Program-made: the position numbers and the translations under genes
Notes under the pieces: model-generated
Told to the model about the DNA's origin: nothing
Database searches by the model: none
Seen by the model: the letters and a program-made list of their open reading frames with translations, nothing else
Shown: piece after piece, positions 682 through 3,421 of the stretch
Position numbering within the stretch: the stretch's first letter is position 1
How the letters are laid out: every line of letters begins with the position of its first letter
Origin: Escherichia phage VpaE1_ev108
Sequence record: LR597658
Length of the DNA stretch: 64,000 nucleotides
Strand: one strand, 5' to 3'

Positions 682-2097
682 ATGAGCGAATTATTTAAAC
701 ATGCGCACCTTCATGCAGGTCGAACTGAAAATGGTGCTATAAACCATACTTCATCAATGTCTGCTCTTGTAGACTTTTACAAAGCTGCGGGTTCTAGCCG
801 TAGCAATGTAGAAATCTTACCAGACCTGTTCTACAAAGCTTTGCGTGAGGATGTTGATGTTGCAGTTCGTATTTTGCTTCATATGCGAGATGTACGAGAG
901 GGTATGGGTGAGCGTAAAGCTTTCCGAACCGTTTTGCTTCAAGCAATTGAAGATAAAGTTTTAGAGCCTACACAGGTTCTTCGCATTATGGATAAGATTG
1001 CAGAACTTGGTCGTTTTGATGACTTCAAAATCTTCGTAGGTACTCGTTTCGAGACAGATGCCTTCAAACATTTAGAAGCAGCATTACTAGACCCTGCAAC
1101 AGCAGGTTTGGCAGCTAAGTGGTTACCACGAGTAAAACCACGTCATAAGCAGTTTGTAAAACGTTTCTGCAAGTTTGCCAACTTGAGTGAGAAAGAGTAC
1201 CGCACACTGTTGTCTGCACTATCTGATACAGTTGAGCAAAAAATCTCTGCTAATGAGTTTGGTAAGATTGACTACAGTAAGATTCCTTCTCTTGCTGCTG
1301 CACGTTACCAAAAGCTGTTTAACCGTAAAGATGGAGAGCGTTACAAAGCTTACATCGAGTCCTTATCAAAAGGTGAGACTAAGATTAACGCTGGTGCTGT
1401 TTACCCATACGATGTGATTAAATCTGTTAAGTATGGTAATGCAGATGTTGCTAATGAGCAGTGGAAAGCACTACCAAACTGGATGGCAGAAGGTGAAAAC
1501 ATCTTGTGTATGTCTGATGTATCAAGTTCAATGTCTTGGGTGAATTTTGGCTCCATTACTGCTCTGGATATTGGTGTATCACTTGCCTTGTATGTAGCAG
1601 AACGCAATACAGGTTGCTTTAAGAATGAGTTAATGGTTTATTCAACAAACCCTCACTTCATCGAACTGAGTGGTGATTTACGAAACCGTCATCGTCAGGT
1701 GATGCGACACGTTGAATATGGCTCAACTAACTTACAAGCAGCTTTTGACCGCATTCTTGAAACAGGTAAAAGAAACAACTTGACTCAGAAAGATATGCCA
1801 AGTAAGCTTATCATCTTCTCCGATATGGAGTTCAATCAGGTTGATGGAGCTAACGGTCGTACAAACTTTGAAGCAATTCAGAGTAAGTACAAAAAAGCTG
1901 GATATGAGATGCCACAACTGGTATTCTGGTACTTAGCAAACCGTAATGGTACTTGCGAAGTATCTGTTAAGGATAACGGTGTAGCAATGGTATCAGGGTT
2001 CTCTCCAGCCACTTTAAAAGCTCTGCTTGGTGGTGAGAAGTTTGACCCAATCAGCGTAATGCTCAAAGCAGTAATGATTGACCGTTATATCTGGTAA
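682..2097 (+). CDS. vWA-domain protein; candidate Ro60/TROVE-like (Rsr-like) RNA-binding protein
   Basis: 471-aa ORF with RBS; C-terminal half carries MIDAS-like DVSSSM (DxSxS) and LIIFSDMEF motifs resembling the Ro60 vWA domain; N-terminal about 270 aa unassigned; assignment from motif recall only. Confidence 0.5.
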   Translation: MSELFKHAHLHAGRTENGAINHTSSMSALVDFYKAAGSSRSNVEILPDLFYKALREDVDVAVRILLHMRDVREGMGERKAFRTVLLQAIEDKVLEPTQVLRIMDKIAELGRFDDFKIFVGTRFETDAFKHLEAALLDPATAGLAAKWLPRVKPRHKQFVKRFCKFANLSEKEYRTLLSALSDTVEQKISANEFGKIDYSKIPSLAAARYQKLFNRKDGERYKAYIESLSKGETKINAGAVYPYDVIKSVKYGNADVANEQWKALPNWMAEGENILCMSDVSSSMSWVNFGSITALDIGVSLALYVAERNTGCFKNELMVYSTNPHFIELSGDLRNRHRQVMRHVEYGSTNLQAAFDRILETGKRNNLTQKDMPSKLIIFSDMEFNQVDGANGRTNFEAIQSKYKKAGYEMPQLVFWYLANRNGTCEVSVKDNGVAMVSGFSPATLKALLGGEKFDPISVMLKAVMIDRYIW

Positions 2098-2115
2098 AAA
2101 GTTTTAAAAAGGGTA

Positions 2116-2144
2116 TTGACAATGTGTTTAATACCCTTTAATAT
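2116..2144 (+). promoter_or_regulatory. sigma70-like promoter TTGACA-17-TAATAT
   Basis: TTGACA 2116-2121, 17-nt spacer, TAATAT 2139-2144; lies inside inverted repeat gggtatt/aataccc. Confidence 0.6.
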
Positions 2145-2206
2145 GTTCTACATAGAAACGAAATGAGAGCTTTTCTAAGATACTGAAAAATATTTTAAAA
2201 AAGTTC

Positions 2207-2236
2207 TTGACAATCACTAAAAAATAATGTTAAAGT
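2207..2236 (+). promoter_or_regulatory. sigma70-like promoter (TTGACA, weak -10) upstream of tRNA array
   Basis: TTGACA 2207-2212 preceded by A-tract; -10 candidates ttaaag/taaagt; first tRNA starts 2263. Confidence 0.45.
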
Positions 2237-2262
2237 GGTTACATAGAGTTTGAAAAGTTTAT

Positions 2263-2339
2263 CTCTGTTTAGCTCAGCTTGGTAGAGCGTTCCGTTTGGG
2301 GCGGTAAGGCCGGAGGTTCAAGTCCTCCAACAGAGACCA
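2263..2339 (+). tRNA. tRNA-Pro (anticodon TGG)
   Basis: 7-bp acceptor ctctgtt/aacagag, D-arm gctc-agcttggta-gagc, anticodon loop tttgggg, T-arm ggagg-ttcaagt-cctcc, CCA encoded. Confidence 0.8.
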
Positions 2340-2346
2340 AATTAAT

Positions 2347-2424
2347 GTTCCAGTAGACAAAATGGTAAAGTCACCACTCTTTCAAAGTGGATATCTGAGG
2401 GTTCAAATCCCTTCTGGAACGCCA
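2347..2424 (+). tRNA. tRNA-Glu (anticodon TTC)
   Basis: acceptor gttccag/ctggaac, anticodon stem ccact/agtgg with loop ctttcaa, T-loop ttcaaat, CCA encoded. Confidence 0.8.
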
Positions 2425-2431
2425 GTTTTGA

Positions 2432-2505
2432 CAGAAGACCAATTACAGCAAACTTAATCTTATTCATCTGAAGGTAAATCGGACAAAGAAGAGATTTGGT
2501 CTGGT
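2432..2505 (+). ncRNA. conserved spacer stem-loop element (copy 1), CAGAAGACC / GGTCTGG stem
   Basis: 5' cagaagaccaatt pairs with 3' atttggtctggtc (agaccaa/ttggtct); encloses about 50 nt; same stem sequences recur at 2598-2665, 3053-3128, 3142-3274. Confidence 0.45.
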
Positions 2506-2516
2506 CATTAAGAATT

Positions 2517-2592
2517 GCGGGTATAGAGAAAGGGCGTCTCACATGTCTCATTAGCATGGTATCGGCAGGTTCGACTCCTGCACCCGCCTCCA
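2517..2592 (+). tRNA. tRNA-Met (anticodon CAT); possible initiator-type
   Basis: D-arm gaga/tctc, anticodon stem catgt/gcatg with loop ctcatta (CAT), T-arm gcagg-ttcgact-cctgc; 1-nt register ambiguity at acceptor gives a possible 1-72 mismatch. Confidence 0.65.
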
Positions 2593-2597
2593 AATTT

Positions 2598-2665
2598 ACA
2601 GAAGACCGTTTACAGCAATATTTATTAAATTTTTAGCGGAAAAAATTGAAAGATACGGTCTGGTA
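2598..2665 (+). ncRNA. conserved spacer stem-loop element (copy 2)
   Basis: 5' cagaagaccgt pairs with 3' acggtctggtaat (7 bp agaccgt/acggtct); encloses about 45 AT-rich nt. Confidence 0.45.
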
Positions 2666-2676
2666 ATACTAAACAT

Positions 2677-2753
2677 GGTTAGGAAGCACATAAGGTATGT
2701 GCGGTCGCCTGTTAAGCGAATGGCACAGGGTTCGAATCCCTGACTAACCGCCA
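2677..2753 (+). tRNA. tRNA-Asn (anticodon GTT)
   Basis: acceptor ggttagg/actaacc, D-arm gcac-ataaggtat-gtgc, anticodon loop ctgttaa, T-arm caggg-ttcgaat-ccctg, CCA encoded. Confidence 0.75.
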
Positions 2754-2822
2754 AATTTAGGAGAGAAGCGATTGCTCACCGATTTGTAAGGTGCAAGTCC
2801 TTAGCCTGAATAGAAATTAAAT

Positions 2823-2910
2823 GTGTCGTTATCCCGTAGATGGTAGCGGTGGGGACTGTAAATCCCTTGTCATTGAGACTCGGTAGGTTCGACTCCTACA
2901 CGGCACACCA
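2823..2910 (+). tRNA. tRNA-Tyr (anticodon GTA), long variable arm
   Basis: 88 nt; acceptor gtgtcgt/acggcac, anticodon loop ctgtaaa, long variable arm, T-arm gtagg-ttcgact-cctac, CCA encoded. Confidence 0.75.
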
Positions 2911-2915
2911 ATAAA

Positions 2916-2993
2916 GGTTATGTAGTTTAATTTGGTTAAAATACTCCCCTGTCACGGGAGATGATGAGGGTTCAAATCCCTTCGTAACCGCCA
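2916..2993 (+). tRNA. tRNA-Asp (anticodon GTC)
   Basis: acceptor ggttatg/cgtaacc, anticodon stem ctccc/gggag with loop ctgtcac, T-arm gaggg-ttcaaat-ccctt, CCA encoded. Confidence 0.8.
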
Positions 2994-3052
2994 ATTTTGA
3001 GAGGGCTATTTAGCCCCTCCCTTAAAGGGTTCTTACGAGTATTCTTTAAAGG

Positions 3053-3128
3053 AGCAGAAGACCAAATTCAGCAAGTTACTTAAAATTTCAAGCCAATTTA
3101 ATTTTGAAAAATTTAAAACTTGGTCTGG
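3053..3128 (+). ncRNA. conserved spacer stem-loop element (copy 3)
   Basis: 5' cagaagaccaaattc pairs with 3' aaacttggtctggc (agaccaa/ttggtct); AU-rich 50-nt loop. Confidence 0.45.
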
Positions 3129-3141
3129 CTCAACAAATTTA

Positions 3142-3274
3142 CAGAAGACCGTTTACAGCAAAACTTAACAATCTATTTCTCCGGTAAAGAAAAGGCGAAG
3201 GTTCGATTCCTTCACTCGGCAGATGTCGAGTTGGTGTAATGGTAGTACTTAAGATGATAAACAACGGTCTGGTA
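3142..3274 (+). ncRNA. candidate Y-RNA-like (YrlA-like) ncRNA: conserved 8-bp closing stem enclosing a tRNA-like domain
   Basis: stem agaccgtt (3146-3153) / aacggtct (3263-3270); interior has canonical T-arm gaagg-ttcgatt-ccttc (3197-3213), then 7-bp hairpin actcggc-agat-gtcgagt (3214-3231), then D-arm-like ttggtgtaatggtag; no anticodon arm; about 1 kb downstream of the vWA/Ro60-like gene. Confidence 0.4.
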
Positions 3275-3417
3275 ATTATCTTTGTAGATAAGTTATTAAG
3301 CTTACCTGTGAGTATGCGACCACAAAGGGTGAAAGGGTAAATTCTAGATTTAAACCCAAAAAGGCACATCGCTACAGACCTTAAGCAAGTCTGGGTAGCT
3401 TATCTACAAAGATAATT
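3274..3417 (+). repeat. perfect 19-bp inverted repeat (aattatctttgtagataag / cttatctacaaagataatt) flanking about 106 bp
   Basis: left arm 3274-3292, right arm 3399-3417; could form a long RNA hairpin (RNase III-type site) or mark an insertion/recombination site. Confidence 0.6.
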
Positions 3418-3421
3418 TAAT

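Follow-up and report, generated by a model that had tools for sequence, protein, structure and literature searches.

A Ro60-fold protein gene of Felixounavirus phages and candidate Y-RNA-like partners in the adjacent tRNA array

Known Ro60 systems and the Felixounavirus protein

Ro60 and the Y RNAs are conserved from bacteria to humans, and how the RNA directs the protein is poorly understood. Y RNA is bound at the outer surface of Ro60, and the ends of single-stranded RNA in its central hole. Here we examine what is probably a parallel version of this pairing in Escherichia phage VpaE1_ev108 (sequence record LR597658), of which one stretch of 64,000 nucleotides, hereafter the window, was analysed: a gene for a 471-aa protein predicted to have the Ro60 fold (682..2097, + strand), and four elements, E1-E4, in the tRNA gene array downstream of it, which share a paired 5'/3' end that we refer to as the CAGCAA handle. 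Bacterial Y RNAs are encoded within a few kb of Ro60 genes and on the same strand, and Y-like RNAs have been described beside TROVE-annotated Ro60 genes of 254 bacteria and 22 phages, the named phage example being ET08 (PMC4201824). This selection by TROVE annotation, together with the ET08 example, points to the canonical clade for the 22 phages. In YrlA the tRNA-like helices follow the order V-T-AS-D, where AS is an acceptor-like hairpin (Chen et al. 2014, PMC4201824), and Y RNAs have been proposed to gate and tether Rsr, the bacterial Ro60. The Ro60 of phage phiLo binds two adjacent Yrl RNAs, identified by their CGAA motif, and can form a complex with host PNPase (PMC12135203).

Closest to our locus is gp130 of the Felixounavirus Bas63, for which a Ro60-like fold has been noted and which counters the ppl defence system; its authors already guessed that Y RNAs hide among the annotated tRNA genes, and no RNA was identified (bioRxiv 10.1101/2024.10.10.617714). 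Judged by genus and by its position directly upstream of tRNA genes, gp130 is very probably the ortholog of the 471-aa protein. That this Felixounavirus protein resembles Ro60, and the conjecture that its tRNA cluster holds Y RNAs, had thus been published before, and what is new here is E1-E4 and the CAGCAA handle; unlike the annotated tRNAs of the Bas63 guess, E1-E4 are unannotated and sit between tRNAs. We found no description of the handle in the literature, where the term 'DUF2828' gives unrelated papers only and the 22 phages of Chen et al. were not compared one by one, and no matching family in Rfam 15.

The window belongs to a Felixounavirus; over 682-3420 it shares 97-98.5% identity with Felix O1-like phages and has matches in 298 phage records (Felix O1 itself at 97.5%). 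The open reading frame at 682..2097, which an earlier sequence-only reading of this DNA had described as encoding 471 aa with the segments DVSSSM and LIIFSDMEF, was confirmed, and downstream of it are the 26 clustered tRNA genes that ARAGORN calls. Its Felix O1 counterpart is gp42, labelled 'RNA-binding protein' in RefSeq and 'vWFA protein' or 'hypothetical' in other records. The product falls in PHROG 850 ('RNA-binding protein') and has two Pfam domains, DUF7788 (residues 274-455, E 1.8e-43) and DUF2828 (E 6.3e-29), both above gathering score (148.8 and 101.5 bits). Homologues were found in 709 of 50,697 phage records (about 1.4%).

An AlphaFold model built on 40 homologues (predicted local distance difference test, pLDDT, 87.5; predicted template modelling score, pTM, 0.87) superposes on Ro60 structures over its full length, and the top 12 Foldseek matches are all Ro60/TROVE entries (E 1e-8 to 7e-7). 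This supports the earlier proposal of a Ro60-like protein: in the model both the N-terminal region of about 270 aa, which had been left unassigned, and the von Willebrand factor A (vWA) domain adopt the Ro60 fold. The N-terminal region (aa 1-270; 682..1491, + strand) is predicted to be all-helical (helices H28-H263 in the model) and is TROVE/HEAT-ring-like by fold only. The vWA domain (1501..2046, + strand) has a complete MIDAS (for metal ion-dependent adhesion site) motif (D279-x-S281-x-S283, T349, D381), the five residues of which are invariant in 40 homologues of 42-89% identity. It is in fold and not in sequence that the modelled N-terminal ring resembles Ro60. The predicted structure, a helical-repeat ring and a vWA/MIDAS domain, makes the 471-aa product an RNA-binding protein of Ro60 type encoded by a phage, and as judged by sequence DUF2828/DUF7788 is a clade distinct from canonical TROVE Ro60.

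As a control we used gp220 of phage Bxz1, which matches TROVE (170 bits) and vWA_Ro60 (183 bits); upstream of it are a YrlA-like RNA (32.5 bits) and a second RNA, with the GNCGAAG motif GGCCGAAGG. In an hhalign comparison of the two proteins DVSSSM pairs with LDVSGSM, and 40 columns around the MIDAS are aligned with a probability of 67%.

The CAGCAA handle in the window and across DUF2828 loci

E1-E4 are located 335-1176 nt downstream of the Ro60-like gene, all on the + strand. Three are short handle RNAs: E1 (2432-2505; stem AGACCAA/TTGGTCT, UU-ACAGCAA, 3' G) lies between tRNA-Glu and tRNA-Met, E2 (2599-2664; stem AGACCGT/ACGGTCT) between tRNA-Met and tRNA-Asn, and E3 (3055-3129; stem AGACCAA/TTGGTCT) has the motif UCAGCAA. 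E4 (3142-3273; stem AGACCGT/ACGGTCT, CAGCAA at 3156-3161) is a handle RNA with a permuted tRNA-like module. All four are closed by a stem of 7 bp and have a linker of 3 nt and an invariant CAGCAA, and in each a G comes after the 3' strand. The stem cores of E1 and E3 differ from those of E2 and E4 by compensatory changes between paralogues.

The sequence-only reading had reported four elements with a conserved closing stem, and these are real, although the 5' repeat is longer than it had given: CAGAAGACCNNWTWCAGCAA occurs exactly four times on the + strand of the 64 kb (at 2432, 2599, 3055 and 3142), where 0.28 copies are expected by chance and none of 100 shuffles reaches four. Each copy is followed, 58-125 nt later, by GGTCTGG (2498, 2657, 3122 and 3266). 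The same reading had called the elements tRNA mimics, a description that suits E4; E1-E3 are not tRNA mimics and have only the handle in common with it. E1 is separated from its neighbouring tRNAs by 10 nt on either side and E2 by 9 and 12 nt, similar to the spacing between tRNAs. None of the 26 tRNAs called by ARAGORN in the window falls on E1-E4, and a whole-window Rfam scan at gathering thresholds returned tRNAs only. A permissive Rfam scan of 2000-7400 placed Dictyostelium class I RNA on E1 and E2 at 20 bits, which is chance level, and this candidate was rejected. E1-E4 are likewise without annotation in the Felix O1 record and without discussion in the Felix O1 genome paper (PMC3185647).

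To compare loci, we collected DUF2828 genes with their flanks from annotated phages (Citrobacter Michonne, Klebsiella FBKp34, three cluster L mycobacteriophages, Vibrio XZ1, Campylobacter CPX, Listeria List-36 and Staphylococcus 6ec), from 80 IMG/VR viral contigs and, as a second set, from 80 contigs of bacterial assemblies; individual loci are cited below by their L numbers. A common design was found beside the gene, 5'-A-[7 bp]-N-U-W-CAGCAA-(variable 20-250 nt)-[7 bp]-G-3', in one to seven copies on the gene strand, with stem letters that vary by locus (for example AGGATAG/CTATCCT, AGAAGAA/TTCTTCT, TGGACGC/GCGTCCA and AAGACGC/GCGTCTT). Many phages that are unrelated to one another have it, as do prophage-like contigs, and its range includes Felixounavirus and Mooglevirus, a Stephanstirmvirinae phage of Klebsiella, mycobacteriophages of cluster L, phages of Campylobacter, Listeria and Staphylococcus, and contigs from Clostridia; the Vibrio phage XZ1 locus has no clear element. 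All the related genomes that we examined and that encode the protein also have the elements, which occur far outside the genus as well; their absence from such genomes had been named as grounds for abandoning the proposal.

We assessed the handle by a fixed-register test without free parameters, in which the 7 nt at positions -9 to -3 before WCAGCAA must be matched, 20-330 nt downstream, by a perfect Watson-Crick complement. The 91 sources (DUF2828 loci and the window) had 127 of 330 sites that passed on the gene strand, against 5 of 202 on the opposite strand, whereas shifted registers gave 5-28 of 330 and random 7-mers at the same sites 3.65%. In the second, independent set (80 loci from bacterial assemblies) the counts were 129 of 375 against 9 of 182 on the opposite strand. 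A first stem finder, which accepted a 6-bp stem with a free linker, or one mismatch, had been discarded as too permissive (435/354/211 matches; random 7-mers 42%). Of 126 elements, 44 are upstream and 82 downstream of the gene; their median distance is about 330 nt, and 116 are no more than 1.5 kb from it in flanks reaching 5 kb.

Several features that the search did not impose are shared by the 249 distinct elements: a G follows the 3' strand in 93% and an A precedes the 5' strand in 71%, the linker reads N-U(67%)-A(72%), the positions after CAGCAA are G-poor (4-8% G), and A is common in the 3 nt that precede the 3' strand. When 54 short members are aligned, each of the six stem pairs changes on both sides (133 cells, against 32 in shuffles); this count is partly circular, as the sequences were picked for a perfect stem, and shows pair-type diversity only. 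From the same 54 members, none of which comes from Felix O1-like or Michonne loci, a covariance model (R1) was built. On the 64-kb window R1 recovered E2 (36.3 bits, E 6.2e-6), E1 (33.1 bits, E 3.7e-5) and E3 (31.6 bits, E 8.3e-5) as the only significant matches, the next one being at 16 bits (E 0.44); with filters off it also recovered E4 (22.2 bits, E 0.0012), despite an insert 60 nt larger. The covariance search that had been proposed as a check thus finds the elements with a model trained without Felix O1-like sequences.

The interiors of handle elements fall into further types. In some short elements AGCAA is repeated two to three times, 12-14 nt apart (L016 6409-6469, L017 6409-6466, L027 6398-6455, L069 4836-4892), which suggests that AGCAA is read as single-stranded RNA, the interiors being otherwise unstructured. 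One payload class has a conserved interior of about 250 nt (L012 6471-6720, with counterparts in L014, L016, L017 and L066), for which we obtained no Rfam family and no useful RNAalifold structure. Another, in jumbo-phage contigs, carries CCUUUCUGGAGGGGAAAGCAAAAACUCGCCAAAA in an interior that is also conserved (L010 4276-4370, L011 3133-3232, L015 149-280, L019 1265-1373) and likewise matches no Rfam family.

The tRNA-like payload and other structured RNAs

Within its handle, E4 holds four hairpins on the + strand: a V hairpin (3176-3192; 5 bp, 7-nt loop) upstream of the T arm, the T arm itself (3197-3213; GAAGG-TTCGATT-CCTTC), a closed 7-bp acceptor-like hairpin directly after it (AS, 3214-3231), and a D arm preceded by UG (3234-3248). 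The T-arm, acceptor hairpin and D-arm seen by the sequence-only reading therefore stand, and its statement that no anticodon arm is present has to be corrected, as the Rfam tRNA model aligns 3176-3192 as the anticodon arm; this hairpin corresponds to the V stem-loop of YrlA and is also found in Michonne, with covarying letters. The match of E4 to the tRNA model is partial (22 bits, under the 29-bit gathering score). The resulting order, V-T-AS-D, enclosed by pairing of the RNA ends, is the YrlA plan of Chen et al. 2014 (PMC4201824), in agreement with what had been proposed.

We parsed the helices of the tRNA-like members from the T-loop anchor; a MAFFT alignment was discarded because it misaligned the 3' ends. 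The order of parts is fixed in E4 and its counterparts: the T stem, of 5 bp and with a UUCRANY loop, is followed without spacer by a 7-bp hairpin, then by UA or UG (the positions of tRNA U8 and N9) and by a 3-4-bp D stem with a GG-containing loop. The V-T-AS-D plan is kept in 15 of 17 lineages with differing helix sequences, and compensatory changes of the module were found in Michonne, FBKp34 and 14 other lineages. The AS is 7 bp long in 19 of 21 strictly parsed members, among which there are 17 distinct AS sequences. In 4 of 17 distinct strict members (chance about 1/64 each), with Felix O1-like near-duplicates counted once, the AS loop starts with N-CCA and so resembles the 3' end of a tRNA whose CCA is encoded; such loops occur at L002 (Michonne) 3719-3836, L057 6528-6635, L078 6795-6917 and 9484-9606, and L049 6422-6544, and the AS loop of E4 is AGAU. 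By analogy with M. smegmatis YrlA, N-CCA loops would fit RNase P cleavage and a CCA end.

When compared with bacterial Rsr and its RNAs YrlA and YrlB (Salmonella, M. smegmatis), the locus is alike in having a ring plus vWA/MIDAS protein and, on the same strand and at most a few kb away, several genes for small RNAs, inside the roughly 4 kb used as the criterion for YrlA. As with YrlA, one RNA has a V-T-AS-D module closed by 5'/3' end pairing and is accompanied by shorter partners lacking the module, and its 7-bp acceptor-like stem resembles that of M. smegmatis YrlA, which is cut by RNase P. The differences are equally clear: the protein belongs to Pfam DUF2828/DUF7788 instead of TROVE/vWA_Ro60, the handle RNAs have N7-NUW-CAGCAA and a 3' G in place of GNCGAAN0-1G, and they are embedded in a phage tRNA array, with no RtcR/RtcBA operon here. 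The motif GNCGAAN0-1G is absent from the 5' parts of E1-E4, the sole GNCGAA (3194) being the start of the T arm. Rfam YrlA (RF02553, gathering score 69 bits) had no match on E4 when 161 nt were searched with a cutoff as loose as E<=10; mycobacteriophage members of the handle family score 38-40 bits against it (E 1e-5), under the threshold. Unlike metazoan Ro60-Y particles, the RNAs have no GGUCCGA bulged helix, the genes are linked here and unlinked in animals, and protein identity is 12-13%.

The canonical phage systems differ from the DUF2828 clade in both partners: the Ro60 proteins of Bxz1/ET08 and phiLo are of TROVE type and go with Y-like RNAs, and in 48 kb of Bxz1 R1 has no match and no CAGCAA handle was found. 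In the loci examined, two protein clades go with two handles, both with a tRNA-shaped payload. The RNAs and protein described here thus form a parallel clade of the Ro60/Y-RNA kind, and are not members of it by the curated Pfam and Rfam models. The tRNA cluster of phage T4 also encodes small stable RNAs that are processed there, species 1 and 2 (rnaC/rnaD), of unknown function; E1-E4 resemble them in being small RNAs within a phage tRNA gene cluster, and we know of no Ro60-like gene beside rnaC/rnaD.

Two neighbourhoods deserve mention in this context. In FBKp34 an annotated second tRNA-Asp (L003 8003-8116; Rfam tRNA 47.7 bits) has a 38-nt insert between its D and anticodon arms, consisting of the hairpin AACTTCT-TAGA-GAAGTT followed by TTACAGCAT; the insert looks like a handle placed in circularly permuted position inside a real tRNA, and some phages may even graft the handle into a tRNA body. 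In Listeria phage List-36 (L089 5075-7021) an RtcB-type 'tRNA splicing ligase' and a metal-dependent phosphohydrolase are encoded 0.6-2.5 kb downstream of the DUF2828 gene, a neighbourhood that recalls the rsr-rtcBA linkage of enterobacteria.

Other structured stretches of the array were also recorded. Just before tRNA-Lys lies E5 (3274..3419, + strand), a possibly related structured RNA of uncertain membership with a closing stem of about 24 bp and an inner hairpin CAGAC-CUUAAGCAA-GUCUG, of which CUUAAGCAA is the loop. Its minimum free energy is -47.9 kcal/mol (z -5.9), and the Michonne counterpart (L002 3840-3986) has the same plan with other stem letters (z -4.4); R1 has no match to E5, which may serve as a processing site of RNase III type or be one more RNA with AGCAA in its loop. 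A long hairpin at 4468-4567 resembles Rfam MIR473 at 32.7 bits, below threshold, and within it is a 35-nt mini handle with CAGCUU (4492-4526; R1 17.6 bits, E 0.015). Two unannotated conserved spacers have no ARAGORN or Rfam call: 2754-2822, with a T-arm-like hairpin AAGG-UGCAAGU-CCUU (z -2.6), and 4110-4206, a possible degenerate tRNA ending in CGTCCCATGCCA.

A probable protein-RNA partnership and its alternatives

We consider it probable that the gene and the elements form a functional partnership, that is, a Ro60-type ribonucleoprotein of which E1-E4 are the cognate RNAs. E1-E4 would be non-coding RNAs acting as functional counterparts of Y RNAs, and the handle formed by pairing of their 5' and 3' ends would be what the protein recognises. 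The payload would then be the variable part, a short AU-rich hairpin in E1-E3 (YrlB-like) and a tRNA-shaped module, as in YrlA, in E4. A consensus scan found promoter-like sites at 2116-2144 and 2207-2236 (+ strand), at the head of the tRNA and small-RNA array, as well as a site TTGACA-18-TAAAGT at 613..642 (+ strand; 10 of 12 consensus matches) upstream of the Ro60-like gene, which is a promoter by its letters only. From 2236 to 3671 the + strand has no terminator-like site, which makes co-transcription of E1-E4 with the tRNAs probable; transcription would start from the promoter-like sites at 2116 and 2207, and the RNAs could be released by tRNA-processing enzymes. After the model of Rsr and its Y RNA, the RNA may gate the protein or tether it to other factors acting on RNA or tRNA.

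Directly 3' of the Ro60-like gene (2108-2139), a promoter-like TTGACA lies in the loop of a 10-12-bp hairpin. The same design is seen in Michonne (L002, about 2685-2716) and FBKp34 (L003, about 7452-7480), which brings the phage genera that share it to three; it may act as terminator and promoter in one, or as a promoter under regulation.

Several results weigh against the partnership, and it needs to be interpreted with them in mind. The single-sequence folding energies of E1-E4 are not unusual (z -0.6 to -1.8); they do not separate the elements from shuffles, and the case rests on comparative evidence and not on thermodynamics. About a quarter of the loci have no element under the strict perfect-stem criterion, and in sequence the handle has nothing in common with GGUCCGA and GNCGAAN0-1G, the motifs through which known Y RNAs bind Ro. 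On the side of the protein, the predicted structure is that of Ro60, but the TROVE match that had been suggested as a check was not obtained and DUF2828 was matched instead: neither Pfam TROVE (PF05731) nor vWA_Ro60 (PF25045) matches the 471-aa protein at E<=1, or five distant homologues. When the PDB was searched by sequence, neither the protein nor a profile of 40 sequences retrieved a Ro60, and an NCBIfam search with the protein returned nothing. As the hhalign alignment with Bxz1 gp220 covers only 40 MIDAS residues, common descent of the N-terminal ring is not proven. Finally, T7 again forms plaques on a ppl host when Bas63 gp130 alone is expressed, whether plasmid-borne or carried by T7 (10.1101/2024.10.10.617714); because gp130 alone suffices, the phage RNAs are not needed for anti-ppl activity.

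The alternative that survives best, although we regard it as unlikely, is that the elements are cis-acting operators or titrating repeats in untranslated regions of the protein's own transcript, serving autoregulation or resembling the RNA repeats of type III toxin-antitoxin systems. Such a role would agree with tandem elements in up to seven copies, upstream or downstream of the gene on its strand, and with the moderate toxicity of the mycobacteriophage family member LeBron gp53 when overexpressed alone (PMC13148394); gp53, like Bas63 gp130, was tested without partner RNAs. It fits less well with the two promoter-like sites between the gene and the elements, with the interleaving of elements and tRNAs at 9-12 nt spacing, and with copies that differ in stem and payload, unlike the exact repeats of ToxI type, and the toxin-antitoxin form is unlikely in its own right. 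The tRNA-like payload, with its 7-bp acceptor stem and N-CCA loops in 4 of 17 members, argues for processed stable RNAs, and even an operator would still require the protein to bind the handle.

Less probable again, and in our view quite improbable, is that the elements are furniture of the tRNA operon, either processing or spacer signals or decayed tRNA genes, with the proximity of the gene incidental. E1 and E2 do fill tRNA-sized slots in the array, E4 contains tRNA arms, and tRNA clusters often adjoin DUF2828 genes. However, the handle is found beside the gene without an adjacent tRNA array in cluster L mycobacteriophages, in Staphylococcus 6ec and in many Clostridia contigs; the rest of the 26-tRNA region has no R1 match below E 0.01, its best being the mini handle at 4492-4526; and an invariant CAGCAA in fixed register is no feature of tRNAs. 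That the repeats act as DNA (recombination or mobile-element ends, protein-binding sites or terminators) is very unlikely indeed. In its favour are their inverted-repeat ends, at a place where related phages carry homing-endonuclease genes; against it are a strong strand bias (127 of 330 against 5 of 202), stem letters that change while pairing is kept, a G-U pair in Michonne E1 that would be a C-A mismatch on the other strand, and no T-run after the stems.

The anti-ppl activity of Bas63 gp130, the probable ortholog, suggests that the protein contributes to counter-defence. Since gp130 alone acts on ppl, the handle RNAs, if they are indeed its cognate RNAs, may regulate or redirect it. A bolder extension, which we regard as doubtful, is that the CAGCAA handle marks a large unrecognised family of modular phage RNAs that load a second, sequence-unrelated clade of Ro60-fold proteins with payloads, among them a tRNA-shaped piece that may be cut by RNase P and may be CCA-ended; the particle would then be a device for counter-defence or tRNA surveillance, serving as a decoy or sensor for tRNA-targeting immunity or as the active anti-ppl form.

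The finding reaches well beyond this one phage and is thus more than a single-locus curiosity. A gene present in about 1.4% of phage records, and labelled there 'hypothetical', 'vWFA' or 'RNA-binding', gains a specific candidate RNA partner, and four unannotated RNA genes are added to the Felix O1 group, which are classic typing and therapy phages. It also offers a hypothesis for how the ppl-countering protein of Bas63 may work. As a parallel pairing, in which another protein clade and another handle go with the same tRNA-like payload in hundreds of natural variants, these loci would provide a comparative system for determining which parts of the Ro60/Y-RNA design are essential.

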